The notes under the pieces were generated by a model. It worked only from the letters and a program-made list of their open reading frames with translations. It ran no database searches and was not told the DNA's origin. A stretch of DNA of 64,000 nt, from the NCBI GenBank assembly GCA_038243585.1, contig JBBSQY010000001.1, positions 32,001-96,000 of the forward strand. The letters run 5' to 3'. Positions within the stretch are counted from its first letter, which is position 1; each line of letters begins with the position of its first letter. Made by a program: the position numbers and the translations under genes. Source of the DNA: Candidatus Sumerlaeales bacterium. Its GTDB lineage: Bacteria > Sumerlaeota > Sumerlaeia > Sumerlaeales > Sumerlaeaceae. Shown in pieces: positions 20,033-57,257 of the stretch.

Positions 20033-21427
20033 CTAGTTATAAAGTTGCCAGTCGCCCACACCGCTACTGGTATCAAAATGAACCCAGTCAAACTCCGCTG
20101 TCATCTGGGGCCCACCGTTATCATTGACTTTCTTGCCCAACAGCTGCACCTGGGTATTCTGAAGCTCCGTGCTGTACGTGTGGCCGCCATTCGGCAGGCT
20201 GATCCAGGTGACATTATCGAAGCTATACTGGGCCGTGTAAGTGGATCCTGCTTTATCGATTCGCAGATAAGCCGGAAGCGGATCGCCACCTAGGTTAATT
20301 TCGTCCACGTTCCATTCATTGGAATCGGCGCGCTGGTAGACGGCCTGAACCATATGAGCACCCGCATCGGTCCGCAAATTTGCGATTGATGCATAATCAT
20401 TCTGATCCTGCCACAGCCACAGACCATAACCGGTCCAATTTTGAAAGTTAAACAGTTCCGTGGGGCCCACTTTTGCAGTAACCTTTAAGTTAGGGACTAC
20501 GGGTGCCTTTTGGAAGACCCTGACTGCCTTATCAATTCCGCCCCACTGATCATTAAAATTGGCGGGAGTAATCCGCAATGCACCGCCTGATACGGCAATC
20601 GTTGATGCTTCAATACCCTCATGTTTCCCCCAGACCAAAGGATCAAGAGAGGTCCCTGCAAACTCATCATTCGTCCCTGCAGACGCCGTTGGTACGGCGA
20701 CAGGACCTGTGCGGATAAAGTCAAACAGACCGACGTCATTTTGCCCGTTGGTGCCGGGCCCCGACTGAATCAGTCTGATTTTTTCGTTAGTAAAATATCC
20801 TGTTGCTGCGTTTTGTGAGTTGCGGATCAAGCGGTTCACCTGTATCCAGGTGGTTCCGTCATAGCTGACCAGACCAAAGTATCCATTCTCCGTTTTCTGG
20901 ATCTTCAGCCATACCGGATTCTGGGTTACATCCCAATAAGCCTGGTCCCCGCCCCATTCATGCCAGTTTTCCGTGCGATTGGCTACGAAATCGGAATTGT
21001 AAGCGCCCTCAACACCCCGTCGCCATGTCGGGTTGCCGTCATTACCCAGCGCCCAGACGCCAAACCAGTGGTCGTTGTCCTGCCACAGCATAAGGCCACA
21101 CTTGTTCCAGTTATTCTGTTTGCCCGCCGCAGTAGGGTCAAAGTCATCAAGTTTGGTAACGATTTCCCAGTTCGTGCCACCCGGCGCGTCCTGTTGAACA
21201 TACGTGTATTTGTCGATAAAAAAGAACAGGTCTGCCCCTTCCATCGCTTCAATGGAAAGGTGGGTTCCCGTGTGACCGATTACGCTGCCCACAGGGTCGC
21301 TATCTTGAAAAGTCCACTGGGTCCCAAGAGATCCCCCGTTAAACTCATCAGCAACGAACTGTCCGAAAGATAATGAGGCACAGGAAAGCGCACTGCCCAT
21401 CAGAAATAATGTTTTCAATCGATTCAA
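20033..21427 (-). CDS. Secreted protein with two concanavalin-like (DUF1349/GH43 C-terminal-like) domains and C-terminal WxLY tail
   Basis: TTG start with GGAGG RBS; signal peptide; duplicated DEF.G.SL...W...GL..WQD.D module; ends SGVGDWQLYN. Confidence 0.8.
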   Translation of the reverse strand: MNRLKTLFLMGSALSCASLSFGQFVADEFNGGSLGTQWTFQDSDPVGSVIGHTGTHLSIEAMEGADLFFFIDKYTYVQQDAPGGTNWEIVTKLDDFDPTAAGKQNNWNKCGLMLWQDNDHWFGVWALGNDGNPTWRRGVEGAYNSDFVANRTENWHEWGGDQAYWDVTQNPVWLKIQKTENGYFGLVSYDGTTWIQVNRLIRNSQNAATGYFTNEKIRLIQSGPGTNGQNDVGLFDFIRTGPVAVPTASAGTNDEFAGTSLDPLVWGKHEGIEASTIAVSGGALRITPANFNDQWGGIDKAVRVFQKAPVVPNLKVTAKVGPTELFNFQNWTGYGLWLWQDQNDYASIANLRTDAGAHMVQAVYQRADSNEWNVDEINLGGDPLPAYLRIDKAGSTYTAQYSFDNVTWISLPNGGHTYSTELQNTQVQLLGKKVNDNGGPQMTAEFDWVHFDTSSGVGDWQLYN

Positions 21428-21472
21428 ACTGTTACCCTCCCATTAAGATATAGTTGATAGATAAAACTTGCC

Positions 21473-21502
21473 TTCTGAATATGCAACTGGATTTATTCAG
21501 AA
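21473..21502. promoter_or_regulatory. Inverted repeat in divergent promoter region, possible operator
   Basis: TTCTGAATA-N12-TATTCAGAA perfect 9-bp arms. Confidence 0.45.
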
Positions 21503-21532
21503 CAGTGAAAACAAAGCAAGAAAGAGGGTCAA

Positions 21533-22207
21533 ATGAAACCTTCCGGATTCACATTAATTGAATTGCTGATCGTAGTGGCAATTATCGCCATTCTTGCTGC
21601 GATAGCCGTACCAAACTTCCTCGAAGCACAGACCCGCGCAAAGGTATCCAGGAGTCTGGCTGACATGCGGACTATCGACACCGGAATCCACACTTACGTG
21701 CTTGATAACGATAAGGTTCCGCCCAGTGCCGCCCCAAACTTCGTGTGGCCTTACGCAGTGGATGGCAATGGTTGGATTCGCAGTTGGCGTCAGCGCCTCA
21801 TCCCCGTCACCACCCCCATTGCCTACCTTTCCACCGTTCCCAGCGATGCATTTGGTATGAACTCGATCCACGCGAAAAAACCACCACCTGGATTCAAGTC
21901 TGGCGATTTCACCGTGCCCCAGTATTGCGAAGACTATTTTGTAAGCCTGCCAACACGCGGGTATCTAAGCCCCCCGGGCAGGCCCGGAGCAGGTTATGTC
22001 AGCTATGATGCAGCACAACAGGATGTTGGTTGGAGACTAATTTCCTGCGGGCCAGACAACGTTTTTAACTACGATGACTCCGCCATTCCAGCAGCGCCAT
22101 TCTGGGAAAAAGATGGAATGCCCTATGACGCCTCCAACGGAACCGTTTCCCATGGGGACGTGTTTCGCTACGGTGGTGCCGACCGCGGCAATCGTAATAA
22201 GATATAG
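21533..22207 (+). CDS. Prepilin-type N-terminal cleavage/methylation domain protein
   Basis: G|FTLIELLIVVAIIAILAAIAVPNF; C-terminal SCGPD...YDASNGTVSHGD. Confidence 0.9.
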   Translation: MKPSGFTLIELLIVVAIIAILAAIAVPNFLEAQTRAKVSRSLADMRTIDTGIHTYVLDNDKVPPSAAPNFVWPYAVDGNGWIRSWRQRLIPVTTPIAYLSTVPSDAFGMNSIHAKKPPPGFKSGDFTVPQYCEDYFVSLPTRGYLSPPGRPGAGYVSYDAAQQDVGWRLISCGPDNVFNYDDSAIPAAPFWEKDGMPYDASNGTVSHGDVFRYGGADRGNRNKI

Positions 22208-22661
22208 AACGCGGTTGTGACATAAAATAAGACGCTGCAATATCGGATGCTACGCTACCCCATAGTATCACCGAGCAGCATCCATTTTGGCGAATCGTGT
22301 TTGTTTTTCCGTCAAATTTCTCCGTCCACAATCTTGCCTAAATGCCCATGCGGGAATACCACACTCATATCCCCCATGGCAGAACCACACCCATGAAAAC
22401 GACAAACACACCCCAGCCAGCCTCGGCCCCAAACCTAAAACTTGCACCAACGCTTTAATTAAGTACCTAATAGAAAAAACTAAAACACTCCAACACAAGC
22501 ACTTGCATATTAATTAATTAAAAAAAACCGAGGGCTGTGGACAAAATTTTCAAACAAAAATCATCGCGGCTATGCTTTAAAGTTTCGCCTTATGCTCTGG
22601 ACATTAACGGTTATGCGGCCCACACAACGTTTATATTTCACACATCCGGCGGTCAAGCTTA

Positions 22662-24017
22662 ATGGATAAAATCAGGCAAATTCTTCTCCAGCGCGGACGG
22701 CAATATCTAACAACCGTGCGTTCATCTCTGTGGCTCATACCAGGGCTCATGATCGGCTTTTCCGTCCTCCTGGCTCTTTTTCTCATCGAAGTAGATGCGC
22801 GCCTGGACCATAAGTGGTACCAGGATTATCCCCACGTTTTTGGCCTGGGTGCGGATGGTTCCCGGGGCATGCTCACAGCCATAGCCGGTTCCATGCTTAC
22901 TGTTGCCGGGCTATGTTTTTCCCTCACCCTCAGCACCATATCACAAGCGTCAGCCCAGTACACGCCGCGCATCTTGCGCAACTTCATGCGCGATCGCACC
23001 AACCAGTTTATACTTGGTTATTTTGTAAGCATATTTGCCTACTGCCTGATGGTGCTGCGCACTATCCGCGGTGCTGATGAAATCAAATTTGTACCGTCCC
23101 TTGCCGTGCTCACCGGGCTAATATTAGCCATCGGGGGCGTCCTCGTCCTTATCTATTTTATCCACCACATCGCCACGTCGCTGCAGGTGAGCCATATTAT
23201 TACGGTCATTGAAGATGAGACAGTGCACGTGATTGACAACATCTTCGAAGATGAGCTGGACTCGAACGCCGAGACTGACGCCCCAATGCCACCCGACACG
23301 GTATCTGACATCATGGCTGACGCTGTGACCAACTGGTATCCGGTACACTCTCTCGACAGCGGCTACGTGCAATATGTTGATATGGATGGCCTCACGGAGT
23401 TCGCTGAAGAGCACAGCTCCGTCCTCCGCATGGAATACGGGGTGGGCCAGTTTGTGGGGGTTGGCACGGCGCTTTTAATGTCATCTGTAGAGCTGGAAGA
23501 TGGTGACGAAGCTGAGCTGAACAGCCTGTTTAACGTCTACCGCTACCGCACTGTCGAGCAGGACGTTGGCTTTGGCATCCGCCAGATAGTGGACATTGCC
23601 CTGAAGGCCCTGTCGCCCGGTATTAACGACACCACCACCGCAATCAATTGCATTGATTACCTGGGCGTCATCGCGGGCCGGCTGGCCAATCGCAAGCTTA
23701 CGCCACCTTACCGCATCGTCGAAGGCGAACTGCGAGTGCTGGTCATGGCACCATCATTTCATGATTACGTAGGCACCGCCTTTGACCAGATCCGCATCAG
23801 TGGCAGCGGCAACATGGCCATCTTCATGCGGCTGGTGAAGGCATTCGCACTAGTAGCAGAACGCACCGTGACGGAAGACCGTTTGCACACCCTGCACAAG
23901 CACATGGAGCTGACCCGCGTGTTTGCCAGTGAGACTCTCGTCACAGATTATGAGAAAGAGAAATTCCAGGAGTACTACGAGCGCCAGATGGAACGCATGA
24001 CATTGTGTAAAGCTTAG
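22662..24017 (+). CDS. DUF2254 family membrane protein
   Basis: ASAQYTPRILRNF and DIALKALSPGINDTTTA motifs. Confidence 0.88.
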   Translation: MDKIRQILLQRGRQYLTTVRSSLWLIPGLMIGFSVLLALFLIEVDARLDHKWYQDYPHVFGLGADGSRGMLTAIAGSMLTVAGLCFSLTLSTISQASAQYTPRILRNFMRDRTNQFILGYFVSIFAYCLMVLRTIRGADEIKFVPSLAVLTGLILAIGGVLVLIYFIHHIATSLQVSHIITVIEDETVHVIDNIFEDELDSNAETDAPMPPDTVSDIMADAVTNWYPVHSLDSGYVQYVDMDGLTEFAEEHSSVLRMEYGVGQFVGVGTALLMSSVELEDGDEAELNSLFNVYRYRTVEQDVGFGIRQIVDIALKALSPGINDTTTAINCIDYLGVIAGRLANRKLTPPYRIVEGELRVLVMAPSFHDYVGTAFDQIRISGSGNMAIFMRLVKAFALVAERTVTEDRLHTLHKHMELTRVFASETLVTDYEKEKFQEYYERQMERMTLCKA

Positions 24018-24088
24018 GGTTTGTAACGCCGAGACGCGGAGGTCGTAAGCTTATATAGCAACCTAAGAACTAAGCGCCCTATCAGAAC

Positions 24089-24119
24089 AAAAAAAAGCCC
24101 CGCCAAAACTGGCGGGGCT
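24089..24119 (-). terminator. Rho-independent terminator
   Basis: AGCCCCGCCA / TGGCGGGGCT stem with T-run on minus strand. Confidence 0.85.
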
Positions 24120-24192
24120 CTAGTGCATCATGCAAATTCTCCACAGCAGTAAGGAAAGGCCAGTTAGAACCAGCCCTATACCGTACGCGTGT

Positions 24193-25719
24193 TTAGTTGA
24201 ACAAAGACCACTCAGCGATCCCCGAAAGAGCGTCGTTAGACGTGTTCGGCGTCGGACGATCCGTCGGTACTAGATCCGTTGGAGAGAATGTGCGAATGGT
24301 GGACGAACCGTCAGGCCTGCGGCCGAGAGACCCGCCGGCTGGGATTGCAGAAACGCCGGAATTGATAAATCCGTCCACGTCAGGAGAATCTTCCCCCCCA
24401 AGAAACGCAACGCCGTCGAGCAGTTGGGTCCCATCGGAAATTCCCACCAAAGACCCCGCATTACGGATTCGCGCAACTGTATAAGTAAACGTCGTGCCCG
24501 GGATGAAGCCCGTTGGGTTGCCCGATGAAAACACAGTGACAAAACCACCTGCAGGAAGAGTAGCCCCTTCCGGGAAAACGTAGCTGTGAAACACCTCGCT
24601 GTCCGAATCTTTACAACGTTGTTCCCATCCTTCAATAAGAATTGGGGCTGCGGTCATGTTGAAAATTTCAACGAATTCATCATTTTGACCAGCAGTGCTT
24701 CCGTCATTGTTATGATCTACTGTACCAGGGTTATAACAGATTTCATTAATCTTTACAGATCCTGCGAGAGCCGGAGTACCACGCACGAGTTCCGTGGCAA
24801 ATTCGATCGACCCGGAAGGAGAAGTCAAACCGTCGGTCGCGTAGGTAACCGACCCGCTATAACTCTTGTTAGTGCTCACGTCAGATTCAACAAACTGAAC
24901 TGTAAGTGTTGTGGATTGGTTAAATTGCAGAGTAACGGGTAGCGCGGGAGTGACTCCATCAAAATAAGTAAAAGCAGTGGATGAAGACGGCTCGAGCTGG
25001 AAACTGCTCACTGTCAAAGGAGCAGTTCGGGTGTTTTTCAAAGTAATAGTTTTGCTTGTTGGCACAACTGCCGTTGCCTGATTCATCCTGGGAAAATCGA
25101 GTTGATTAATAGAAAAACCCGACTGCCGCGAGTTGACGGCTCTGGGCGTAGGCTCAGCGGGCACCCACAATCCACCGTTTCCGTCTGGTATGCGGGATAA
25201 GCCTACAGACGTTGCGTTACCATAAACACCTTCATTGTAGACGGGAGGGGATCCCAACCCGCTCCAGTCAATATCTCCCTGGACACCAACCTTATACACA
25301 AGCACGTCAACAATTCCGGAAGTGGTAGGGAGTGTTCCAGTCGGAAAAGAGGCTGCCGAACCAGTATAAAGAACGACGGCATCGTTGCCGTTTTGGAGTT
25401 TATTGTTTGCCAGCACCACGTCCGCACCTGAAATCGCGCTGTTCGCAATCAGAATATAGCCGTTTGCATCAGCGGTTAACCCGCTGAGGTCGAAAGCGAG
25501 GTAACTTTTAGGACCCACACCCCCCGAAGCAGCACCGTCATAAAGAACCACCACCAAGCCATCGGCCGACTCATTTGGGTCACCCTTAAGCTCGATAAAT
25601 TCTGCGGCATCCGTCCCAGGTGTGTCCGCGTCTATTTCGTTTATTAAAAATGCTGCGGACGCACTGGCACAAAGGCATGAGACCAATGCGATGCCGACCA
25701 AACTCTGTACAAATTTCAT
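24193..25719 (-). CDS. Secreted lamin-tail-domain protein (two LTD-like domains, Ig-like middle) with C-terminal WxLF tail
   Basis: INEIDAD...EFIEL and INEICYNP...DEFVEI; PTP ends; ends SGIAEWSLFN. Confidence 0.82.
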   Translation of the reverse strand: MKFVQSLVGIALVSCLCASASAAFLINEIDADTPGTDAAEFIELKGDPNESADGLVVVLYDGAASGGVGPKSYLAFDLSGLTADANGYILIANSAISGADVVLANNKLQNGNDAVVLYTGSAASFPTGTLPTTSGIVDVLVYKVGVQGDIDWSGLGSPPVYNEGVYGNATSVGLSRIPDGNGGLWVPAEPTPRAVNSRQSGFSINQLDFPRMNQATAVVPTSKTITLKNTRTAPLTVSSFQLEPSSSTAFTYFDGVTPALPVTLQFNQSTTLTVQFVESDVSTNKSYSGSVTYATDGLTSPSGSIEFATELVRGTPALAGSVKINEICYNPGTVDHNNDGSTAGQNDEFVEIFNMTAAPILIEGWEQRCKDSDSEVFHSYVFPEGATLPAGGFVTVFSSGNPTGFIPGTTFTYTVARIRNAGSLVGISDGTQLLDGVAFLGGEDSPDVDGFINSGVSAIPAGGSLGRRPDGSSTIRTFSPTDLVPTDRPTPNTSNDALSGIAEWSLFN

Positions 25720-26021: not shown

Positions 26022-27302
26022 CTATTCGAACATATCCCAGCCGGCGGCCCTGTTTGTTTGCTGATTAGGATCCAAGAAGAACCCCGCCGGTGCATACGTA
26101 TGACCCGGGAAAAGCGTTGCCAATGTGCTGTCAGAAACCCCGCGTCGCGCCTTTAGGATTTCGCCTATTACGGAACGAAAATCGGTTGTGGCTGCTACGT
26201 CCACAGATTCAAATAGCTGACCCTGCGCCAGTCCCGGCCACGCTCCGTATATCTTTTTCTCAAGCACATTTGAGCTGAGCACCATCATCAATCCGCCGTG
26301 CCCGTGATCTGTGCCCAGGTTATCATTCTCACGCACTCGCCGCCCGAATTCGCTCATAACCACCACGGTCAGTCTGCCGTGATACTCCAGCAGGTCCGAC
26401 CAGAACGCATGAAGACCATCGGCCATTTGCTTTGCATTGTTCGCGAAATAACCTTGGTGCGGGCTCCCGTTGTTGGCCTGGTATTCATGGGTATCCCAAC
26501 CTCCCAAATCAACCGTTGCAGCTTCCAACCCGAGATTCATTCTTATAATCTGCGCCACGGATTTCAAGGTTTCCGCAAAATCTGTATCCGGGTAAACGGT
26601 ACCGTTCCCCGGCACGTAATCCCCAGTGGGGTTCGCATCGATCAGGTCTACGGCATCCAGCGTGCGATTCGCCACACCACTCAGCCGCGGATCAGCGGCA
26701 TACATTTGTCGCAGTGCGACTCGAAAATCATCAAGATGATTATAGTGAGTATGCAGTGTAAAATCCTCCGCCGACTCCATTGTCAGTGCTCCGGGAAATC
26801 CTTCCAGCGATATGGAGGCGGCACCGTTCAGCGATACCGCGCGAAAGACGCTATCCATGGGACTTGACGGTACCAGGTGGCGCGCCAGCCAGCCATCCCC
26901 GGTTTTGGCAGCGCTGCCTGTCAGGCCGCGATCCATGATATCCTGAGCATCAAAGTGGCTTCGGTTTGCCTCCGGAAAACCACACGCCGGAATAAACGCC
27001 AAGTGTCCTGCATTGTACAACGTGGCCAGCTTATCGGCGCCTTTATTTATACCAAAGTAGCCGTTTAAATCAATTACGTTGGCAGCATCCAATCCCAGCC
27101 TGCTCCGCGCCTGGTGGTATTCTGTATCAGACCATGGTGCCAGCAGGCTGAGTGCATCCATTCCGCCACGCAGAAACACTGATACAATTATATCGCGATT
27201 GCCCGGGCCTTGCCCGAACGTCAGATTGCCAAGCCTGGCACCGGCCAAGGCCATGATGCTGGAGCAGCAACCCTGCAAGAACGTGCGCCGTTTCATCTTC
27301 AT
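26022..27302 (-). CDS. DUF1501 family protein, Tat-exported, with C-terminal WxMF tail
   Basis: KRRTFL Tat motif; FLRGGMD, RSHFDAQ, GGWDTH, SEFGR, GTDHG motifs. Confidence 0.9.
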   Translation of the reverse strand: MKMKRRTFLQGCCSSIMALAGARLGNLTFGQGPGNRDIIVSVFLRGGMDALSLLAPWSDTEYHQARSRLGLDAANVIDLNGYFGINKGADKLATLYNAGHLAFIPACGFPEANRSHFDAQDIMDRGLTGSAAKTGDGWLARHLVPSSPMDSVFRAVSLNGAASISLEGFPGALTMESAEDFTLHTHYNHLDDFRVALRQMYAADPRLSGVANRTLDAVDLIDANPTGDYVPGNGTVYPDTDFAETLKSVAQIIRMNLGLEAATVDLGGWDTHEYQANNGSPHQGYFANNAKQMADGLHAFWSDLLEYHGRLTVVVMSEFGRRVRENDNLGTDHGHGGLMMVLSSNVLEKKIYGAWPGLAQGQLFESVDVAATTDFRSVIGEILKARRGVSDSTLATLFPGHTYAPAGFFLDPNQQTNRAAGWDMFE

Positions 27303-27344
27303 TAAAATAAGTACCTTTCACAAAAAGGAGGGTAATGAGTTAAT

Positions 27345-28922
27345 TCAGCGCCACATATATTCTGGCGCTACGGTGCACAGAGCCGCAATGCGTGGGGCCT
27401 TGTCTTCAATCTGCTCTACGGGCAGTGCGATATCAAAGTTTCGCCCCTCAGCAACAAACACCATGATCCCTTCAAAAGTCGCAGTAGAGACAGGACGTTG
27501 GATCACCCGGTTTATCCACCATTGAGCGATCTCACGTGGCGTGCGAAGAGTGCCGGGCATCAACGCATACGCCGGGAAGGTAAGCCCTTTATTAACCCAC
27601 CATCCGGCATCAATGCGAAAGATGAAATTGTAACGAGACAGCATACTTGTCGCCGTTGCCCAGTTATAAAAATCCTTCGGCGGCCCATCGGGCGAATGCC
27701 ACCCGAACATGTAATAGCCCACATCGGCCATCATGTAGGTCATCTGAAAAGCGTCTTCACCCTCGCGATAAATATATGGGATAGCCAGCGCCCGCATTGT
27801 CGAAATGATCCAGTCGTACGGACGCTTCAGCAAACACATCCGCGTCGCTTCACTGCGAAACTCAGATGAGGCAAAGATGTGCGCCAGCGTGAGACGAATC
27901 TGCTGCGCATTGTTGCGGTTCTGATAGAAAACATTCGCCGAACTGGCCACGATAGACTCGGCAGGCGTCTCCGATACAAACCGCTGACACAGCTTTAACG
28001 CAATATGCCGCGCCGTGCCCTGATGATTACAAATAAGGTCAATCACCTTAAGGCCATCAGCCAGGTCGGCCTGATCATTTGGGATGGAAGTACCCAGCAC
28101 GATTTTCTGAAAGCGATCATGATTATCGCGCACGTATTTAAACTTGCCACGGTTGGGTGATGCACTCGAATTATCATACGACCACCCTGTGAAGCACCGG
28201 CTCGATTCGTATACATCGTTGTCTACATAGCCGCCTGGCGCATTGTAACTAATCGCACCAAGCGAATGCAACTCGAACAGCTCGCGCGCGTAATTTTCAT
28301 TAGGCCCCGCGTTCGTGCTCAGGTAATTATCCAGATAATCTAACATCACCGGATGTTTGGCCGTCGCCGTCACAAAATCGCGAAAATTACCCAGCGCATG
28401 CTGACGAATGAGGCGGTCCCATTCAGGAAACAAACACGCGATAGGCGTATCATACGCATATACGTTAAAATGATCGTGCCAGAAGGCCGTCATCACCTCA
28501 AACAGTTGCCATTTGGAATGCAGCATTCGCGCGAGAGTGGCATGGCGAACCTCGTCCGCCGGGCGCATGGCTTCAGCCCAGTTCATGCTGCGCCGATCAT
28601 ATAGTACGGTGGTCGATTCCGCAAACGTCCCGTGGGGCAACGCCGCCAGCATGGCGGCCAGTTCCGGCGTATCAGTCGCCCCCGGATTAAGCTGCTCTGC
28701 TATCCAGGCATCCACCCCCTGGGCTTCCACTGCAGCAATATCACCAGGGCGCGTACCAAACGTAAGCCGGTTCGCCACGTGAGCCGCCAGAGATGGGGCA
28801 GGTGCAGGATTATCAAGAGATAGTGCTGCTGTGTCCTGACCAGGATCACTTTTAAGGGCACTATCCTGACGCATAAAGTATTGCCGACGCGAACTGAGTG
28901 CGGTTGGGGAAGACATGGGCAC
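27345..28922 (-). CDS. DUF1800 family protein
   Basis: RLTFG, FWHDHFN, YLDN, PNENYARELFELHSLG, FTGW motifs; adjacent to DUF1501. Confidence 0.92.
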   Translation of the reverse strand: MPMSSPTALSSRRQYFMRQDSALKSDPGQDTAALSLDNPAPAPSLAAHVANRLTFGTRPGDIAAVEAQGVDAWIAEQLNPGATDTPELAAMLAALPHGTFAESTTVLYDRRSMNWAEAMRPADEVRHATLARMLHSKWQLFEVMTAFWHDHFNVYAYDTPIACLFPEWDRLIRQHALGNFRDFVTATAKHPVMLDYLDNYLSTNAGPNENYARELFELHSLGAISYNAPGGYVDNDVYESSRCFTGWSYDNSSASPNRGKFKYVRDNHDRFQKIVLGTSIPNDQADLADGLKVIDLICNHQGTARHIALKLCQRFVSETPAESIVASSANVFYQNRNNAQQIRLTLAHIFASSEFRSEATRMCLLKRPYDWIISTMRALAIPYIYREGEDAFQMTYMMADVGYYMFGWHSPDGPPKDFYNWATATSMLSRYNFIFRIDAGWWVNKGLTFPAYALMPGTLRTPREIAQWWINRVIQRPVSTATFEGIMVFVAEGRNFDIALPVEQIEDKAPRIAALCTVAPEYMWR

Positions 28923-34096: not shown

Positions 34097-36153
34097 AGCA
34101 TTTTAACTTAAAACCGGCCACGCTGGCTCCCGCATTTGCGGCGGCGCTTTGGGCTTTTTGTGCCGCTGGTCATGCGGCTCCGGCGGAGACGGCTCCCGCA
34201 TTTGGATGGCCTTTTGGCAGTTCAAACCGTTATGTGACGGCTGCCTTTGATCTTGATCGCGCCACCGGATCGCAAGCAGACTGGACCGGATGGTTTTCTG
34301 GCGAGGCAACGGCGGGCTCTGGTCATGCGTATGATAACCATGCCGGCCATGATTACGGGATGCCGACCGGAAGTGACTTGTATGCCGTGGCCAACGGCAG
34401 GGTCAACGCTATCCGGGAATCGGTTCCCAATGATGATCACAGCGATACGGGCAACTATCTTATTGTTGATCATAAGGCCGCCACTGGCACAGCCGTGGGA
34501 GGAAAAGATTATCGCAGCCGCTATTGGCACCTGGCGCAAAACGGGGTGATTCCGAGTGCCGTTGGCACGGCTGTGACTAAGGGGGCGCAGGTTGCAGATT
34601 CTGACAATACAGGCAATTCCACTGGCCCTCACCTGCACTATGGGATCTCGCTGTTGCCGAGCGACCAGCTGACCTGTGCGTTTTATCATGGATGGTGGGA
34701 AAATGATGAGTTTTTCACCCACACTACGCGGCCTTGCATCGTGTACCTGAACACAGGATCGGATTTTTTGAACTGTCGGGAAGGGGCGTCTGCGGGCTAT
34801 AATATTATCACGTCTTTTCCGCCGAACACTCAGGTTGTGGCCACCCAGCAAAATAACTGGTGGCGGGTGATGCTGCCGCTGCCGCCGGCATCGGTGGGCG
34901 AGTCCAGAACCGTGGGCGGTGGGTTGGCCAGCGGTTACAGTGAGGCAGGCGTCTGGTCGAATTTGGCTGAGAAATCTGGAGCGGTGAGCGCAACCGATGA
35001 CGATCCGAACCGGGTCATTCTCGAAGGGGCGGGAAGCCGGGCTTCGACGTTTGCCACCACAGGGGACGCGGCCGACTTCGCTACGTTTAATTTTACGATG
35101 CCGTACCAGGCGGGTTTGTATGATGTTTATGCGACCTGGCCGAAGCAGGCTAATGCCGCCAATGTAACCTATCGAGTGGCTCACGCGGGCGGAACGACAG
35201 ACGTTCCGGTTAATCAAAATGGTAATTTGCTGCCGGCGGGCATCGGAACGAAAGCGAATCCGTACCTGATCGCAAGAAATCCATTCGTGGTGAATCACAC
35301 CACGGTGGGCGCTCCTGATGAATGGAATCTTTATACGCCGGAGGGAAGCAATCTGCCCCAGCAAGGGCCGGAAAATCTTTACAAATTCACGCTGACAAAA
35401 CCCGGTACCGTAACTGTGACGGTGGATCATGCAGGATATCCGACGAAGGATATTGATCTGCACCTGCTGAGTTCGGCGAACCCGGCAACGTGTTTCCTGA
35501 GGGCGAACTGGACCATGACTACGACCCTGGCGACGGGGACTTATTATCTGGCGTGCGATTCCTATGGCACTGGCGCGGCTGGTGAATTGGCCGCAAGCCC
35601 CTATAAACTGACGGTTTCGTTTTCTGAAGATCAGCCTTTTCCTGATAGCTGGGTTAAGCTGGGACAGTTTAACTATACTGCCGGCGCCGCGGGCAGTGTG
35701 CAGGTGCGAGAGGCGGGGGTAACGGGTCGGATAGATGGGTCGGTTCCCGGGCAGGTCGTTGCGGATGCCATTAAGCTGGTGCCCCGGATTACTCGGCGCA
35801 CCGGCTGGATCAGCAATGGAATCGCAACGCGGATCAACACCGCCACTACTCCGGTGTCCAGCGTGTTGATCAAAACCGACGCCACCAGCCTGGGTGATTC
35901 CAACGATATCAGTGAGTTCGTGGAAGTGCCTATTTATACGCAGGCGGGCATCGGACAGGACAATCCGTCGCCGCTTGCAGGGAAGGCAGTGACGGGCCAG
36001 CGTTTCGTCTGCACGGGGCGCGCCGGGGACTGGTACCGGGTCAGTCTGACTAACGGCACAGCAGCCGCCAGCGGTTGGATACTGGGTGACCATCTTATTG
36101 GCTGGAACATGAACCAAGTGTCCGAAGTCCAGGAGTGGAGCCTCTACGATTAA
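34093..36153 (+). CDS. Secreted M23 metallopeptidase with SH3-, golvesin- and PPC-like domains and C-terminal WxLY tail
   Basis: HAGHD (HxxxD) and STGPHLHY zinc motifs; ends SEVQEWSLYD. Confidence 0.85.
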   Translation: MKHFNLKPATLAPAFAAALWAFCAAGHAAPAETAPAFGWPFGSSNRYVTAAFDLDRATGSQADWTGWFSGEATAGSGHAYDNHAGHDYGMPTGSDLYAVANGRVNAIRESVPNDDHSDTGNYLIVDHKAATGTAVGGKDYRSRYWHLAQNGVIPSAVGTAVTKGAQVADSDNTGNSTGPHLHYGISLLPSDQLTCAFYHGWWENDEFFTHTTRPCIVYLNTGSDFLNCREGASAGYNIITSFPPNTQVVATQQNNWWRVMLPLPPASVGESRTVGGGLASGYSEAGVWSNLAEKSGAVSATDDDPNRVILEGAGSRASTFATTGDAADFATFNFTMPYQAGLYDVYATWPKQANAANVTYRVAHAGGTTDVPVNQNGNLLPAGIGTKANPYLIARNPFVVNHTTVGAPDEWNLYTPEGSNLPQQGPENLYKFTLTKPGTVTVTVDHAGYPTKDIDLHLLSSANPATCFLRANWTMTTTLATGTYYLACDSYGTGAAGELAASPYKLTVSFSEDQPFPDSWVKLGQFNYTAGAAGSVQVREAGVTGRIDGSVPGQVVADAIKLVPRITRRTGWISNGIATRINTATTPVSSVLIKTDATSLGDSNDISEFVEVPIYTQAGIGQDNPSPLAGKAVTGQRFVCTGRAGDWYRVSLTNGTAAASGWILGDHLIGWNMNQVSEVQEWSLYD

Positions 36154-36915: not shown

Positions 36916-36919
36916 AACC

Positions 36920-48687: not shown

Positions 48688-48700
48688 CGGGTTATAAATC

Positions 48701-49966: not shown

Positions 49967-49976
49967 ATACTTTTAG

Positions 49977-50133: not shown

Positions 50134-50148
50134 GTTTCTAGCTATCTT

Positions 50149-51015: not shown

Positions 51016-51574
51016 GATAGATCTCCGGCTTTAACACGCCGATTCCGGAAAGGTTGCGGTAATTTTCATTAAAATCAAGGCCGTATCCAACCACGTACTC
51101 ATCGGTGATCTCAAATCCCGTGTAGCGAAGGGGAATGACATATTTGCGCTCTCTCTGCTTTTTAAGCAGGCAGCAGACTTCTACGCTGGCCGGATCCTGG
51201 ATTTTAAGTAATTCGATTACGACGCTCAGGGTGTGACCGGTATCCAGTATATCTTCCACCAGAAGAATGTCTCGCCCCTGCAGGTCCAGTTCAGTATCTT
51301 TCGTAATGATCACGCGGCCAGAGGATCGCGCACCCTTATAACTGGAAGCGCCCATCAGATCAAATGCATGAGGAATAGTGATTGCCCGGGTCATGTCGGC
51401 AAGAAATAAAATACCGCCCTTCAATATGCTGATCAGCACCAGGGATTTGCCCCGATAATCATCGCTTATCTCTCGGCCAAGTTGGCCAACCCGTTCATGA
51501 ATCTGTTCTTCTGTATATAGAACTCTTTCCAGGTCTTTAGAAAGGTCTTTTTCCTCGTCTTTTGGAAAAGACAA
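51008..51574 (-). CDS. hpt: Hypoxanthine phosphoribosyltransferase
   Basis: ILKGG, VEDILDTGHTL, VVGYGLD; TTG start after GGAG. Confidence 0.93.
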   Translation of the reverse strand: MSFPKDEEKDLSKDLERVLYTEEQIHERVGQLGREISDDYRGKSLVLISILKGGILFLADMTRAITIPHAFDLMGASSYKGARSSGRVIITKDTELDLQGRDILLVEDILDTGHTLSVVIELLKIQDPASVEVCCLLKKQRERKYVIPLRYTGFEITDEYVVGYGLDFNENYRNLSGIGVLKPEIYLD

Positions 51575-51708
51575 TATTATAGCTCCAGGTGTAAGTGAGT
51601 GGATAAAAAGCGCTGCCACTGGTATAACTTTTGTGGCCTGCTTAATTGGTACGATGGGCACGACAAAAAAATCGAAGCTAATCATACAGACAGGTGGAGG
51701 AAGCCAAT

Positions 51709-52299
51709 ATGAAAAGTAACCTATGGATAGCAATGCTGGCCATTTTACTGGCCGCGGCGCCTTCGGCGGGTTGGAGCCAGCGGGGCGTAATTAACTACGA
51801 AGATCTGTCTCAGCGGAAAACGCAGCGCACCGATCGGGATGCCCGAAAAAAGGAAGACGCTAAAAAAGCCGACGACGCCAAAAAAAAGGCGGACGAGGAT
51901 CAGCGACGGGATGAACGTCGCAAACGGTATGAAGAGGAACGAAATAAAGATAGCAAAGACGACAAGAAGCCTGCCGATCCTGCCAAAAACACCGCGTCCG
52001 CCAAGCCTATGGGCGCAACCGGATCTGCAGCAGACGCCATGAAAGCCGCCATCGCAGCCCGTGCCGCCCGCAAAACGGGGGGAAAAGCAGGTGGCCAGCC
52101 TGGAGCGGCGGGTTCAGGATCTGATCCGACGGGCCGCGAAGTTACGGAAGTCATGCTGGACGCCGTCAGAACACAAACGGTGGAATTCAGCGTTGAGACG
52201 GCGAAGGAGGACCCCGGAATGATTATGCTGAACCCCCCCAAATTTACTCCAACTGAGCGAGTGCGCGCCGGGGATTCCGCCATGGGTCAGCCGTTGTAA
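51709..52299 (+). CDS. Secreted highly charged hypothetical protein
   Basis: GGAGG RBS; signal peptide; K/D/E/R-rich coiled region. Confidence 0.7.
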   Translation: MKSNLWIAMLAILLAAAPSAGWSQRGVINYEDLSQRKTQRTDRDARKKEDAKKADDAKKKADEDQRRDERRKRYEEERNKDSKDDKKPADPAKNTASAKPMGATGSAADAMKAAIAARAARKTGGKAGGQPGAAGSGSDPTGREVTEVMLDAVRTQTVEFSVETAKEDPGMIMLNPPKFTPTERVRAGDSAMGQPL

Positions 52300-52354
52300 G
52301 CCGAAACAGGGTAGCATCGGATATTCCCAAAAAGAAATCGAAGCAGGAGTGCAT

Positions 52355-52385
52355 GGACGGGGGAAATCCCCGTCCTATTTTTTTT
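52355..52385 (+). terminator. Rho-independent terminator
   Basis: GGACGGGG / CCCCGTCC stem followed by T-run. Confidence 0.8.
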
Positions 52386-52504
52386 CCGACTTCACGACAT
52401 TTCTCCTAACTGCCTGAATTCACTTGGCCGGAAAAAACTTGACTTGATTGCGCCCCACCCACACATATTTTATATATACATTAACTAGGCGGTTTAATAG
52501 TCAT

Positions 52505-54124
52505 ATGAAAAAAAGGTTTGGTTTCATGCTCCTGTCGTCAATAATTCTGGCCCCGGCCACCCTGGCAGCCCAAAATTCAAGCGTACCCTCACCCTCAGCG
52601 TTTGAAATCCGCGGTCTCAAAGGCCTCTTTTGGGAAGGTATCGATAAGTATTACAAGGCCGTGCCGTGGATGGCAGACCATAATATGAACTGGCTGATGC
52701 TCTGTTATACCGCCTATCCCGAGAGTGGCACAGACTGGCGCGCCGACTACTCAGATCAGCACCTTGCGGAAATGAAGGAACTTGTGACCAGAGCCGGCGA
52801 CAAAGGCATTACTGTCAGCCTTAGTTTTAATCCCGGCATCTGGAGCAAACCGCCTTTATGCCACTCATGTGAGGAAGATTACCAAGCCGCATGGCGCAAA
52901 GTAAAAGACGCCCACAGCATCGGCATCTATTCCATTGCCCTCTGCCTTGACGATATCGCCCGTGAGCTTCTGCCGGCTGATAAAGAAAAATACGGAACGC
53001 TGCAGGAAGCCCAGGTGGATTTCGTTAACCGGATGTGGAGGGACATTCAGAGCCTCTCTCCCCGGCCGCAGTTCATTTTTTGCCCGAGCGCCTATACCAC
53101 TGACGACATGAAACGGCACATGGATTATACCCTAACCATTGGCGAGAAGCTCGCGCCGGGCATTGAAATTTTCTGGACTGGCCCGACGGTGGTGGCGGAA
53201 ACCATTACCGTGGCCGATACCAACCTGGTAGCGGGCTGGCTTAAGCGGAAGCCATTCATCTGGGATAACTATCCTGTTAACGATATGTTCCCATGGCGCC
53301 CATTGCTGGCTCCGATTGATGGCCGCGACGCAAACCTGGCGGGCGCAGTGTCCGGCATACTTTTTAACCCAATGAAGCAATGGGAGGCCAATAAAATCCC
53401 GCTGGTTTCCGTTGCGGATTATCTATCGGATCCCGCTGGCTATAACCCTGCCGAGGCAGATGGAAAAGTGCTTGCCGAGTACCCAGCGCAGGATCATCCG
53501 GCGATAAGGCTTCTGACGAAATACTACGGGTCGTCGTTTGTTGGCGAAAAGAACTACCCGCCGGGTCCCCAGGCAGGTAGTAATAACGCTGAGATTGTAG
53601 CGGACCTGAAAAAGCTGCAATCTCTGATGCGTGATGGTTCGCCTGAAATGCAGGCGTTATGGGCCGATGTGAAAGATACGGTGGAAGCTGATTTAAAAAA
53701 CCTGGAGATCATGGCACAGGCACCGGTTTTCGGCGGTGAGGCCATGAGCGGCGGCGCGATGGATCTGGCCGAAAAGGCCTTTGGCCACAAAGCCGCACTG
53801 GTGTATGCAAAAGCCTCTGGCAAGTCGCAGGCAGAGGTGGTATTGAGTACAGATTCCACCACAGCATCGCCGACCCGCCTTCGGCTGTTTGCGCGTAACG
53901 GCGACGGCAAAAAGCCCAACGTGAAAGTAAGCCTGAACGGCCAGACAATTGTGGAGGGCATAACGGATTTCTCCCAGTCTGCTTTTGAGGCACGGGAATT
54001 CTCGTTGCCAGCGGATAACCTTTCTACTGGCAGTGCCGTATTAAAAATCGAAAATCTGGAGCCAAACGGAGTAGTCGGAAGCCCGCCATGGTTCGCGGTA
54101 AAATGGGTCCAGTTGCTGCAGTAG
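52505..54124 (+). CDS. Secreted GH84 beta-N-acetylglucosaminidase-like protein
   Basis: LCLDDI catalytic DD, FCPSAY, FWTGP, IWDNYPVND, NPM motifs. Confidence 0.85.
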   Translation: MKKRFGFMLLSSIILAPATLAAQNSSVPSPSAFEIRGLKGLFWEGIDKYYKAVPWMADHNMNWLMLCYTAYPESGTDWRADYSDQHLAEMKELVTRAGDKGITVSLSFNPGIWSKPPLCHSCEEDYQAAWRKVKDAHSIGIYSIALCLDDIARELLPADKEKYGTLQEAQVDFVNRMWRDIQSLSPRPQFIFCPSAYTTDDMKRHMDYTLTIGEKLAPGIEIFWTGPTVVAETITVADTNLVAGWLKRKPFIWDNYPVNDMFPWRPLLAPIDGRDANLAGAVSGILFNPMKQWEANKIPLVSVADYLSDPAGYNPAEADGKVLAEYPAQDHPAIRLLTKYYGSSFVGEKNYPPGPQAGSNNAEIVADLKKLQSLMRDGSPEMQALWADVKDTVEADLKNLEIMAQAPVFGGEAMSGGAMDLAEKAFGHKAALVYAKASGKSQAEVVLSTDSTTASPTRLRLFARNGDGKKPNVKVSLNGQTIVEGITDFSQSAFEAREFSLPADNLSTGSAVLKIENLEPNGVVGSPPWFAVKWVQLLQ

Positions 54125-54130
54125 AGGGAC

Positions 54131-54169
54131 AAAAAAAGGTGGTTCCGGACATCGAGTTCCGGAACCACC
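54131..54169 (-). terminator. Rho-independent terminator
   Basis: GGTGGTTCCGGA / TCCGGAACCACC stem with T7 on minus strand. Confidence 0.85.
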
Positions 54170-54191
54170 GATGATCTAGAGACGCCTCTGC

Positions 54192-57100
54192 CTAATCGCC
54201 GTAGGACGCCCAGGCGTTTACTGTCTGTTCATTACCTGGATTATTAAAGACTGTCGTCACTGGCACATAAAAGCTCGCGCCTTCCTTGACATTGTACACG
54301 TACCCTTTACTGTAATCGGCAGAATTAACGAAGCCCCTCGCGAAGGTACCCGGCCCGCAGGTAATCTTCCACAGCTCGCCGTCCCGCTGAACGTCCATGA
54401 TATCGTAGCACGCATTGCGGACGCCGTCATTGGCGAAGATAATTTGCGATCCTTTGATCGTATCCGGATCGCCTTCGGATATCTGCACCCACGCAACCGC
54501 GGGTACATTTACATTTTTTTCAAATCGGACCAGTGTACCTGCAATATTGCCAGTCCCCGCGACTGCTTTGCCTCCAAAGCTGAGATTCGTGCCCTGGGTA
54601 AGGCTGGCGCTGGTGATCTTTCCGTCTGAAACGCGAAGCCAGGCGTAGGCTCCGTCGGTAGCGATTCCGCCGCTTGCCTGCACGCTTTTTCGGGTTGGAT
54701 TGCTGATGAAATAATCTGTCGTTCCGCCGGCCAAGTCCACCTTTACGGCCACCACCTCCGCGGAGTCTGGCGTTGTTATCGGCAGACGCGTTACGTTTTC
54801 CACAAACGGCGTAGCCTTCCAAGGTTCTGCCACGGAGACGAACTGTGACGACAACGCGGTCGAACTGGCACGATGAAGCAGGGCATAACGCATGAGTTCG
54901 GGATTGCCGGGCTTGTTCTGTGCGGGCACTCCGTCGGCCAGGGCCACGTCGGTCAGCGCCCCCACAAAATGAAGGCGCATGTGGATATCATCCGTGGTCT
55001 TTACTCCGCGATAACCTGTGTCCGCTTTCCAATCGACCTTAAACGATGTCGCCGGGGCAACTGAACGCTGGACATTTTTAAGGTAAGAATACCCAAACGG
55101 GTGGGCGGTGGAATTATCGCCATACGCCACAGTTGGTCCGGCATAGGTGCCCGTGGTTTGGCGGTTCAGCGACATCCCGTCTAGTGTAACAGCGCCGGGC
55201 GGCCCATGAAAGCTCATTAAATGGTCTGTGCCGCCAGATACGCGAAAAATGTCCACGGCGTAAGCATTGCCATCCGGCGCCTCAACAAACGAAATAGTAC
55301 GCGCGTATTCCGTGCATTGCGGATACACGTTCTTGCTTTGAACCTCTGCCACGCCGAAACCGGGAGCGGCGCCGTAAAAGCGAGGGTAACCGGTCCAGTT
55401 TTGCGTCTGGATTTTCTTATCAACCACTACAGTGTTATGACTTAGCGTGTTGTTGTTCCAGGCCGCGCGCGGCTTGTATGTCGAGCTGGCGAAATCCGGA
55501 TATCCCAGGTCGGGCGTCAGGTCGGTGTTAAAGGCATAAATGCTATAGTTGAGTCGATCCTGGTGTCCATGGCCTTTGTTGCGGCCATAATACATCCACA
55601 GCGCCTTGCCCGCGGCAGTATTACCAAACTCGAAGCTCGCCAGGCCGTAGCCGGCCATGTTCTCGCCGAATCGCGGCGCGCCGTTATAATTAAGTGCCGC
55701 CTGCTCCAGACGTTCGTTCATTACGTCCGGAGTCGTGCTGCCGACGTCTGTCAGCAGGCCGGTAGATCGACGACCATTTGCTTCCCAGGCATACCTTGCT
55801 GCTGTCTCATCGCCAAAAAACTCATAACCCGCCGCCAGCACATCTGGGCTTATGCCTGGAGTTATGGTTCCGACCGCCCCGGTGTCGCCGATATTAGGCA
55901 TAAAAGTGTTAAGAGCCTGCACCCGCCAAGGCGCGCGAAACGCGTTGCGGAAGTATGGAAAGTCTCGGCTGATTCTGTTTTTTGTGTAGGAAGAATATGG
56001 CTCCAGAATATCCATGATTTCTTTAATTTTCCCGGGCCATAAATAACAATAGCCCGGAGCAGCCTCATCCGCCATACCGTCGCGATCAAACAGCTCGATC
56101 ATCATCTTAGGAATGTGGCCACCGTCGGCTGCGAAAATCCAGTCCAGCCACTGCGACGTCTTCGGCTCCGTGTTCAATGCCAGAGCTGCGCATGCCATGC
56201 TGCTCTGGTGCATGCCTTCGTTTCCCTTAATCTGGCCCGAAATCAGCGCCGCCGCAGCGGTATTCAGAACTCCGGAATCGATGTTGGTTACGAGCGCCGC
56301 GCGGGTGCCTTTGACTCCGGGCAGATTGAATTGTTGATCTTTAGCCTGCAGAAAAGCGTACAACTCGGGGTTTTCCACCGTACCGCTAATAATCCTGTCA
56401 TAGGCGCGGGCCAGTTGCTGGACGGTTTGTGTCTCCCAAATTCGGCCTTCGATTTTACCTACCCGGTTGCCACCATCGCTATGATACCATCCGCGATCGG
56501 CGTAAGGTTTCCAGTCCATCGCGGGATAAACATCCGCGATTCGGTCCATCATGATTGCTGCCTTACGAGCATACATTTTGTCGCCGCTGAACACATAAGC
56601 CTCGCTGAGCAAAGTCAGGCCGGACAAGATATGACGCCAGTATTTCCACGCGTAATAGCCGATGAACTTGTGTTCCCGTCCGTTAACATCTACATAGCCA
56701 TACCCGTCGTCCACGCCATACTTGTGTAGCGGGTCGGCAGGGTTGGGATGGGCCGCGTTAAACAACAGCGAACTGTCCGCCGTTGTCCGATTAAACAACC
56801 CTTGCCCGTCAATACCACTTCGATAATATTGTTCAAAGTCATTGGTGGGAAACACAACAGCGCAATTAGGACAGGTCAGCTTCCACGGCTTGGTTTCAAA
56901 GTCTGGCGTGTATGGATAATTGCCATATTTGGCTATTTCAAGTCCGCAGTTCAAACAGCCGAGTTGCAGTTTCGACGGGAAGTCGTAGTCCCAGGTCACA
57001 TCAATAGTGCGGGGCAATTGCTGCCCCGGTATCATGGCCCAGAGCTCCTCGTCGCTTTTTGCGGCCCACGGGGCGGCAGCGGAGGTAGCGGCGTCGCGCT

Positions 57101-57257
57101 GAACACCAACCCAATCTACCGTATTGGCATTGTTCCTGGTATTTTGCAGCCGTTGTTCCGGATACATCCCGCCGAATTCACGCTGTGCCGTCAGTGCGCC
57201 GGGCATTAAAAATAGAAATAGTAAAACTCCTGATAGTTTATTGCTTGTAAGCCGCAT
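54192..57257 (-). CDS. Secreted heparinase II/III family lyase-like protein with C-terminal W-x-x-Y tail
   Basis: GAGGAG RBS; signal peptide; GHGHQDRL, DLGYP, SHNTVVVD motifs; ends QTVNAWASYGD. Confidence 0.85.
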   Translation of the reverse strand: MRLTSNKLSGVLLFLFLMPGALTAQREFGGMYPEQRLQNTRNNANTVDWVGVQRDAATSAAAPWAAKSDEELWAMIPGQQLPRTIDVTWDYDFPSKLQLGCLNCGLEIAKYGNYPYTPDFETKPWKLTCPNCAVVFPTNDFEQYYRSGIDGQGLFNRTTADSSLLFNAAHPNPADPLHKYGVDDGYGYVDVNGREHKFIGYYAWKYWRHILSGLTLLSEAYVFSGDKMYARKAAIMMDRIADVYPAMDWKPYADRGWYHSDGGNRVGKIEGRIWETQTVQQLARAYDRIISGTVENPELYAFLQAKDQQFNLPGVKGTRAALVTNIDSGVLNTAAAALISGQIKGNEGMHQSSMACAALALNTEPKTSQWLDWIFAADGGHIPKMMIELFDRDGMADEAAPGYCYLWPGKIKEIMDILEPYSSYTKNRISRDFPYFRNAFRAPWRVQALNTFMPNIGDTGAVGTITPGISPDVLAAGYEFFGDETAARYAWEANGRRSTGLLTDVGSTTPDVMNERLEQAALNYNGAPRFGENMAGYGLASFEFGNTAAGKALWMYYGRNKGHGHQDRLNYSIYAFNTDLTPDLGYPDFASSTYKPRAAWNNNTLSHNTVVVDKKIQTQNWTGYPRFYGAAPGFGVAEVQSKNVYPQCTEYARTISFVEAPDGNAYAVDIFRVSGGTDHLMSFHGPPGAVTLDGMSLNRQTTGTYAGPTVAYGDNSTAHPFGYSYLKNVQRSVAPATSFKVDWKADTGYRGVKTTDDIHMRLHFVGALTDVALADGVPAQNKPGNPELMRYALLHRASSTALSSQFVSVAEPWKATPFVENVTRLPITTPDSAEVVAVKVDLAGGTTDYFISNPTRKSVQASGGIATDGAYAWLRVSDGKITSASLTQGTNLSFGGKAVAGTGNIAGTLVRFEKNVNVPAVAWVQISEGDPDTIKGSQIIFANDGVRNACYDIMDVQRDGELWKITCGPGTFARGFVNSADYSKGYVYNVKEGASFYVPVTTVFNNPGNEQTVNAWASYGD

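Follow-up and report, generated by a model that had tools for sequence, protein, structure and literature searches.

A short tryptophan-containing C-terminal tail on unrelated exported proteins of Sumerlaeota: a candidate sorting tag

Introduction

Why should five proteins of unrelated folds, encoded within 64,000 nucleotides of one bacterial genome and all apparently exported, end in nearly the same few residues? The stretch in question (hereafter the window, i.e., the whole stretch of DNA that was analysed, C1:32001-96000) belongs to a metagenome-assembled genome of the Sumerlaeota (BRC1), here called G000, which comprises 3.43 Mb in 99 contigs and is 90% complete with 3.6% contamination. 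The original prediction, made from the letters of the window, described a short shared ending around a tryptophan (here the W-tail) and proposed that it is a new sorting or anchoring signal. The genome-wide sequence comparisons presented below support the view that the W-tail is a lineage-specific peptide appended to unrelated exported proteins. A tag of this kind would bear directly on how diderm bacteria select the folded periplasmic proteins that cross the outer membrane, a question still debated for type II secretion as well as for most of the phyla that have no cultured members.

Results

The tail in the window and across the genome

The genes of the five tail proteins and their tails are located as follows (coordinates in the window; gene assignments from Pfam, tails from the translations):

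20033-21427, minus strand: P0001 gene, exported double ConA-like/DUF1349 protein
20033..20068, minus strand: P0001 tail SSGVGDWQLYN and stop codon, which fits the genome-wide motif
24193-25719, minus strand: P0002 gene, exported lamin-tail-domain protein
24193..24228, minus strand: P0002 tail LSGIAEWSLFN and stop codon
26022-27302, minus strand: P0003 gene, DUF1501 protein with a twin-arginine N-terminus (motif seen by eye)
26022..26057, minus strand: P0003 tail TNRAAGWDMFE and stop codon
34093-36153, plus strand: P0004 gene, exported protein with M23 peptidase, SH3 and Golvesin_C domains
36118..36153, plus strand: P0004 tail VSEVQEWSLYD and stop codon
54192-57278, minus strand: P0005 gene, exported heparinase II/III-like protein
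54192..54230, minus strand: P0005 degenerate tail EQTVNAWASYGD and stop codon

All five open reading frames (ORFs) were re-translated identically, and the tails read as originally given. According to Pfam the folds of the five carriers are unrelated. The claim that all five bear export signals stood in that their N-termini are hydrophobic and signal-like and that P0003 carries a twin-arginine motif, but the hidden Markov model for twin-arginine translocation (Tat) signals, TIGR01409, gave no match on P0003 itself (NCBIfam scan, E <= 1); it scored above its cut-off in three P0003 homologues. The tail of P0005, with S instead of L and two extra residues, lies outside the strict core pattern and is the weakest of the five, an add-on of about 15 residues with a degenerate motif.

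For the genome as a whole, the gene set consisted of 2567 non-overlapping ORFs of at least 100 residues, called by a simple home-made program. W-x-[LIVMSA]-[YF] followed by zero to two residues closes 77 of these proteins (about 3%): 46 stop exactly at the Tyr or Phe, 30 add one residue, and one adds two, the extra residue (E, D, Q, N, H and others) being mostly polar or acidic. The columns before the Trp (n = 77) read [S35 T20 A17]-[A22 S16 D10 G9]-[V46 A22 I7]-x-[D47 G8 N7 E5]-W and those after it x-[L51 I11 V7 M5]-[Y64 F13], which gives the fuller consensus [STA]-[AS]-[VAI]-x-D-W-x-[LIV]-[YF]-(E/D/Q/N)-stop; Pro is the commonest residue at the positions two to three further upstream (19/77 and 12/77), and N, T, P and G are somewhat enriched in the linker before the tail. 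The consensus drawn from the five window proteins was therefore real, but the residue after the aromatic is optional and the motif extends further upstream.

A scan of all protein C-termini with that earlier, narrower pattern, as had been suggested with it, found the pattern far beyond chance, in 29 of the 2567 called proteins against about 0.9 expected from its internal frequency, and in one of 3289 discarded shadow ORFs. The core, [VAI]-x-D-W-x-[LIVM]-[YF], is predominantly a terminal feature: in about a million residues, 45 of its occurrences close a protein and three are internal. At the conserved positions all six Leu codons, all four Val codons, both Asp and both Tyr codons are used; because the codons vary freely, it is the peptide that is conserved and not a DNA repeat, and selection acts on the peptide, not on the DNA. 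A side observation concerns the stop codon, which is TAA in 53/77 tail genes and in 1139/2490 other genes (odds ratio 2.6, p 7e-5), and in 36/46 of those whose tail ends exactly at the Tyr or Phe; this bias might be due to selection that favours clean termination where the free end is functional, or just to high expression.

The carriers are mostly exported proteins

Signal-peptide-like proteins, defined by a crude hydropathy test at the N-terminus and the lack of a further transmembrane (TM) segment, make up 65/77 of the carriers and 821/2490 of the other proteins (odds ratio 11, Fisher p 6e-20), so that the proposed enrichment among signal-peptide-positive proteins was borne out with this heuristic. 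Twelve carriers fail the test. They include P0001 and P0003, which fall just under the threshold though their N-termini look signal-like; at least one protein truncated by the end of its contig (C1:183268-184362); an NAD synthase, which lies outside the core pattern and is probably a chance match; and a PIG-L family protein with a canonical tail and without a visible signal peptide. The original statement that no cytoplasmic protein has the tail was made for the window; genome-wide it is mostly true, but the NAD synthase and the PIG-L protein are exceptions. The latter, a PIG-L/LmbE-type deacetylase (G000:C65:12821-13591), ends in TTDVTDWELY, and a tail-bearing endonuclease/phosphatase gene is located 2 kb away.

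Among the 72 carriers outside the window, Pfam recognised two subtilases, one trypsin-like and one M12 peptidase, two GH43 and several GHL10 and NAGPA glycosidases, a polysaccharide deacetylase, about seven BNR/sialidase-like proteins, lamin-tail and ice-binding-like proteins, FG-GAP and Kelch propellers, endonuclease/exonuclease/phosphatase and metallophosphoesterase proteins and two GSDH-type dehydrogenases; 27 of the 72 had no Pfam match at all. Made up mostly of proteases, glycosidases, nucleases and binding modules, the carrier set is composed as a secretome or a surface proteome is. The largest single carrier family consists of five large ELWxxDGT-repeat proteins (TIGR04534, up to 17 repeats), encoded on contigs C46, C56, C57 and C98.

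The tail is an exchangeable add-on

Orthologues of the carriers allow the tail to be compared with what other lineages have at the same site. In the DUF1501 family (P0003) the conserved core closes at a Pro-Leu-Gly-x-Phe stretch, and what follows varies by lineage. In family f1 of the phylum and in close metagenomic relatives, an extension of 10-20 residues carries the W-tail at its end; five f15 genomes and one f2 genome have the ending G-[ILMF]-x-[LVM]-[RYN]; one f7 and one f14 genome stop at the core or one residue past it; a second f7 genome has an acidic tail with a D-x-N-x-D-G loop; and the Chloroflexota homologues end in [YF]-L-P-x-[VI]-x-[RK], the YLP-box of NCBIfam. The ending G-[ILMF]-x-[LVM]-[RYN], also found in many metagenomic DUF1501 relatives, may be a sister tag; in G000 only four proteins end in this way, all of them cytoplasmic-looking.

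The W-tail of P0002 is kept in 19 of its 20 best matches, among which the full-length orthologues are 35-63% identical, and distant lamin-tail homologues of Flavobacteriia carry at their end the type A domain of the type IX secretion system (T9SS). In the GSDH family, six f1 copies have the W-tail 8-14 residues past the propeller, an f8 copy has a different ending of 16 residues, and two f15 copies have a long Pro/Thr linker followed by an acidic loop tail. We considered whether the acidic loop tails of the f15 and f7 orthologues are dockerins and rejected this, as Pfam gave no dockerin match and the EF-hand similarity was sub-threshold (E 0.03-0.04). For P0005, the W-tail is present in only two of 120 listed homologues, and most of the listed homologues, even at 60-67% identity, end at the fold; its tail is therefore a sporadic gain.

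An AlphaFold2 model of P0003 (68-row alignment, mean predicted local distance difference test (pLDDT) score 87.8) has a core above 90 and two low values, 64 and 49, in the last 16 residues, with one low-confidence helical turn across W-D-M-F. Both lines, i.e., orthologues that stop earlier or swap the ending and the low tail pLDDT, agree with the earlier view that the tail is appended after the last domain; the tail is not part of the carrier folds.

Distribution of the tail

Phylum-wide counts were obtained with a DNA pattern that encodes D-W-x-[LIVMF]-Y and, directly after it, a TAA or TGA stop, with its reversed form as control (G000: 27 matches vs 0 in the control); the pattern catches only a subset of the tails, and low counts are no proof of absence. 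With this limit, the tail pattern was found in 49 of the 75 species genomes of Sumerlaeota. It is frequent in f1 (11/12), f9-f13 and f15 and in two genomes of other classes (f17, f18), and at background level in f2, f4-f8 and f16. Among tail-free relatives, no other tag emerged consistently from 160 kb of G069 or from roughly 60 kb apiece of G002, G011 and G046, G+C-rich genomes on which the ORF caller performs poorly.

A stricter DNA pattern was applied to a single genome from each prokaryotic species, a search that indicates presence and not absence; it matched at least 116 stretches. Among the 80 matches listed, 21 loci were from Sumerlaeota/BRC1, and several others recur in a few genomes titled 'Candidatus Omnitrophota' or 'bacterium'. 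Five such non-Sumerlaeota genomes (5.7-7.3 Mb) have 14-25 matches vs 0-4 in the control; they belong to one second small phylum, in which 34 of 35 species genomes have matches. The motif varies in this second phylum, where Phe or Tyr sometimes takes the place of the Trp, and His that of the last Tyr.

Comparison with known C-terminal signals

No Pfam or NCBIfam model covers the tail: Pfam had no match at the tail in any of the 77 carriers, and NCBIfam had none in the five window proteins (E <= 1) or the other 72 carriers (E <= 0.001). Full-text literature searches found no prokaryotic paper describing such tags; the parts seen of a Sumerlaeota genomics paper (PMC8092238) mention signal peptides on chitinases and hold nothing on C-terminal tags.

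The closest analogue is the YLP-box, which NCBIfam lists as a putative sorting motif (NF050076, sort_motif_YLP; NF053834, ultrashort_CTERM). It is 10-11 residues long, stands like the W-tail at the very end of exported proteins and has no TM helix either, and it occupies the same site on the Chloroflexota homologues of P0003 (DUF1501 core, linker, tag); it differs in its motif ([YF]-L-P-x-[VI]-x-[RK] vs D-W-x-L-Y) and in the phyla that carry it. The two models recognised the last ten residues of the Chloroflexota protein P0074, taken as a positive control (NF050076: 15.2 vs a cut-off of 15; NF053834: 14 vs 10), and gave no match on P0001-P0005 (E <= 1) or on the W-tail homologues P0006 and P0016 (E <= 10). 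NF053834 had no matches in G000, though it matched in 10 of 14 control genomes. Our literature searches found no paper on the YLP-box or ultrashort_CTERM motifs. The earlier remark that no described family was known therefore needs qualification: the W-tail motif itself is different, but an ultrashort helix-free analogue is already catalogued, and the kind of tag is not wholly unprecedented.

The C-terminal domain of T9SS cargo marks, in each genome that uses it, dozens of unrelated exported enzymes and adhesins, delivered by the general secretory (Sec) pathway, for crossing of the outer membrane and attachment. Its type A form (PF18962/TIGR04183) resembles the W-tail in standing at the same position on the Flavobacteriia lamin-tail homologues, but it is a folded beta-sandwich domain (75 positions in the Pfam profile, about 80-100 residues in such domains generally), whereas the W-tail has nine residues within an add-on of 10-20. 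PF18962 had no match in G000, including the 77 carriers, and occurs in only three of the 75 genomes of the phylum. SprA, the T9SS translocon (TIGR04189, PF14349), was not found in G000, the models being silent in the control genomes too.

A further group of known signals consists of a motif, a TM helix and a basic tail, which are handled by a membrane-embedded processing enzyme (PEP-CTERM/exosortase, LPXTG/sortase, GlyGly-CTERM/rhombosortase and MYXO-CTERM). Like the W-tail, these signals are lineage-specific and are found on many unrelated exported proteins, but the W-tail has neither a TM helix nor a basic end. With this difference, and with a length far too short for a T9SS domain, the original distinction of the tail from both groups holds. 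Among 48 signal-peptide-like proteins of G000 with a C-terminal hydrophobic helix there was no shared tag; no LPXTG-like motif was present in the tails, a sortase gene not having been searched for; and exosortase (PF09721) had no match in G000. Exosortase occurs in nine of the 75 genomes of the phylum, namely in all seven of f8, where the tail pattern is at background level (2 matches vs 3 in the control), and in two f1 genomes, so that exosortase and T9SS together are only a partial complement to the distribution of the tail.

Secretion machinery and candidate readers

G000 encodes Omp85, as do 74 of the 75 genomes of the phylum, and the presence of Omp85 indicates that the cell is diderm. 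G000 has two full-length Omp85 genes (C95:392-1270, on a 3.3-kb contig, and C2:113550-114428). A second Omp85 as a dedicated translocase was considered and rejected, since almost all relatives have one copy and the extra one is on the short contig; it may represent contamination or a strain mixture.

Three secretins are encoded in G000: one of the pilMNOPQ type, one of 836 amino acids and one of 1692 amino acids. The 836-residue secretin belongs to a complete gsp-like cluster on contig C45, which further encodes the ATPase E, the platform protein F, H-like and K-like pseudopilins, a PilM/N fusion, an M-like protein and, at the PilP/GspC position, a protein of 222 amino acids. The 1692-residue secretin (G000:C32:28553-33631, minus strand) is unusual in that TPR-like units and a long Lys/Ala/Glu coiled-coil, within the N-terminal 800 residues, precede its N0-type domains; a PilM/PilN fusion gene is located nearby. 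Of the 75 Sumerlaeota genomes, 70 encode the conserved part of this secretin (residues 780-1150), 68 the secretin of type II secretion system (T2SS) type and all 75 the pseudopilin family, and both candidate secretins have homologues in the five second-phylum genomes tried. Because G000 has neither a T9SS cargo domain nor an exosortase, the type II/type IV-filament machinery is the only known route for folded Sec or Tat cargo that is visible. In type II secretion, a pseudopilus drives proteins that have been exported by Sec or Tat and have folded in the periplasm out through a secretin; the carriers resemble such substrates in their signal-peptide-like N-termini, and the gsp-like cluster is present in G000.

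G000 encodes 25 paralogous pseudopilins of about 200-260 residues with a near-identical N-terminal helix, one of them in the window:

21533..22207, plus strand: pseudopilin-family gene, divergent from the P0001 gene across a gap of 106 bp (Pfam N_methyl, prepilin N-terminal methylation motif)

Eight of the 25 genes stand immediately beside a tail gene, against 1.36 expected (20000 permutations, p <= 1e-4); six of these eight pairs share a strand and are separated by -7 to 179 bp, and the window pair with P0001 is one of the eight. Seen from the other side, 8/77 tail genes and 19/1145 signal-peptide-like genes without a tail are immediate neighbours of a family pseudopilin. Two more family pseudopilin genes adjoin variant tails. 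This adjacency is the single positive lead towards a mechanism. Co-folding of the C-terminal 40 residues of P0002 (alignment of 20 rows) with three candidate periplasmic parts (the N-domains of the T2SS-type secretin, the C-terminal domain of the 222-residue protein, and residues 770-1150 of the 1692-residue secretin) counts neither for nor against binding.

Discussion

The sequence data establish that the tag exists, is terminal, favours exported proteins, is conserved and modular, and has a defined phyletic range, whereas every step of its function is inferred. We think it likely that the W-tail works as a sorting signal, and an ultrashort, lineage-specific C-terminal sorting tag is, taken as a whole, the best explanation of the data, one that we regard as rather probable. 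The carriers would cross the inner membrane by Sec (P0003 probably by Tat) and fold in the periplasm with the tail exposed, and the exposed tail would then mark them for passage across the outer membrane or for display on it. That the step is translocation across the outer membrane rather than retention is a tentative choice, with chances that we put somewhat below even. The preferred reader would be the type II secretion/type IV filament apparatus, e.g., a pseudopilin encoded beside a tail gene, in analogy to the toxin-coregulated pilus system of Vibrio, where a minor pilin reportedly binds the secreted protein TcpF through a short peptide at its terminus, which acts as the signal. That pseudopilins or the T2SS read the tail is a possibility, though a doubtful one. 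Unlikely, and offered as a speculation, is the boldest form of this idea, in which the W-tail would be the first linear, portable signal for a type II secretion/type IV filament machine, members of the expanded pseudopilin family, often encoded beside their cargo, binding the free D-W-x-L-Y end of folded periplasmic proteins before passage through a secretin or display on a short pilus. If that were so, nine residues would determine, throughout two phyla, which folded proteins exit the cell. We know of no T2SS cargo with a shared C-terminal tag.

Several observations weigh against a sorting tag read by this apparatus. Both the gene calls and the signal-peptide test are home-made heuristics, and some carriers belong to families that are usually periplasmic or cytoplasmic (GSDH, one PnrA-like protein, and the PIG-L protein without a signal peptide). 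Close orthologues of P0005 lack any tail, which implies that the tag is dispensable for some cargo. The phylogenetic profiling that the original prediction had recommended for finding a co-occurring reader failed, as no candidate separates tail-bearing from tail-free families among the 75 genomes: both secretins, Omp85 and the pseudopilins are also present in the tail-free f2, f4-f8 and f16, so no reader is singled out. The pseudopilin neighbourhood was not clearly reproduced elsewhere: in 20 stretches around tail genes of eight other genomes, a pilin-like gene is the immediate neighbour of only one of 26 strict tail genes; the same stretches hold five pilin-like genes among 194, two of them beside variant tails, and these counts neither confirm nor refute the pseudopilin link. 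Finally, according to PMC7949064, T2SS signals are held to be structural and not linear.

The main rival, which we consider rather unlikely but stronger than the others, is that the tail is a docking or retention label: the enzymes would be exported independently of the tag and then kept on the cell by a receptor or scaffold of the surface or envelope, in the way that dockerins, SLH domains and the anchoring half of the T9SS domain keep proteins on cells. The modules that replace the tail in orthologues are mostly anchoring devices (T9SS type A; the acidic loop tails of f15 and f7), some carriers show weak NCBIfam similarity to MYXO-CTERM- or LPXTG-anchored families, and the conserved Asp beside the Trp together with the near-terminal aromatic suggests a specific binding groove; dispensability in some orthologues also fits retention better than an obligatory export signal. 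However, no receptor candidate was found, Pfam did not recognise the acidic loop tails as dockerins, nine residues are few for a stable anchor, and retention would not predict the pseudopilin neighbourhood, unless the pilus itself is the scaffold.

The two remaining mechanistic readings agree poorly with where the tail occurs and with its pattern of residues. The tail could be the ligand of a housekeeping periplasmic PDZ protease (DegS/HtrA-like or a CtpA-type S41 peptidase), serving as a processing site, a degron or a jam sensor, much as the C-termini of outer-membrane proteins activate DegS. The motif reaches the free C-terminus or stops one residue short of it and closes with hydrophobic and aromatic residues, as would suit such a role; G000 encodes a single-PDZ HtrA-like protease, a two-PDZ DegP-like protease and a CtpA/CtpB-like S41 peptidase, and on contig C19 the HtrA-like gene lies immediately upstream of a tail gene. 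We nevertheless regard it as improbable: such proteases are near-universal, whereas only two small phyla have the tail, and whole families of one of them lack it; PDZ ligands need a hydrophobic last residue, for which the 31/77 tails with mostly polar or acidic residues after the aromatic are a poor fit; and a degron on 3% of the proteome, kept at 35% identity, is hard to rationalise. More improbable still is a mimic of the beta-signal of outer-membrane proteins that engages Omp85/BAM and hands soluble cargo to the outer membrane. Although 46/77 tails end in Tyr or Phe and nearly every genome of the phylum (74/75) encodes Omp85, beta-signals have hydrophobic third and fifth positions from the end, where the W-tail has a polar residue and Asp, the last residue of 31/77 tails is not aromatic, the carriers have the folds of soluble enzymes and not of barrels, and Omp85 does not track the tail.

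That the shared ending is due to chance, composition, a DNA repeat or a part of the folds is practically negligible, for although the P0005 tail is degenerate and a few matches such as the NAD synthase are probably fortuitous, the counts (29 vs about 0.9, one in 3289 shadow ORFs, 45 terminal vs three internal) refute chance and fold-intrinsic explanations, the codons vary freely, orthologues end before the tail or swap it, and its pLDDT is low.

A nine-residue tag, fixed in position and carried by about 3% of a proteome, would make the secretomes of Sumerlaeota and of the second phylum predictable by a simple rule and offer a handle for finding the machine that reads it, and might even serve as a small portable export tag; together with the YLP-box, it raises the possibility that ultrashort, helix-free C-terminal tags are a widespread, overlooked class of sorting signals.

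Other features of the window

Apart from the tail genes and the pseudopilin gene, the following genes of the window deserve mention:

27345..28922, minus strand: DUF1800 gene (Pfam), directly upstream of the P0003 gene; the usual partner of DUF1501, without a tail at its C-terminus
9604-10956 and 10993-12279, plus strand: GFO/IDH/MocA oxidoreductases in tandem, the second with a twin-arginine-like N-terminus
16375-17544, minus strand: bacterial archaeo-eukaryotic release-factor-like protein of baeRF family 3 (E 2e-44), with a small upstream ORF
17828-18700 and 18854-19789, minus strand: exported paralogues in tandem, each with a weak C-terminal BclA_C (C1q-like) domain

Both GFO/IDH/MocA proteins end in the family-conserved E-P-M-R-A-P-W-[ST]-L-[LS], which contains a near-terminal Trp and is not the W-tail. 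The two BclA_C paralogues share an ending of their own, Q-L-R-I-V-[RS]-[LV]-D.

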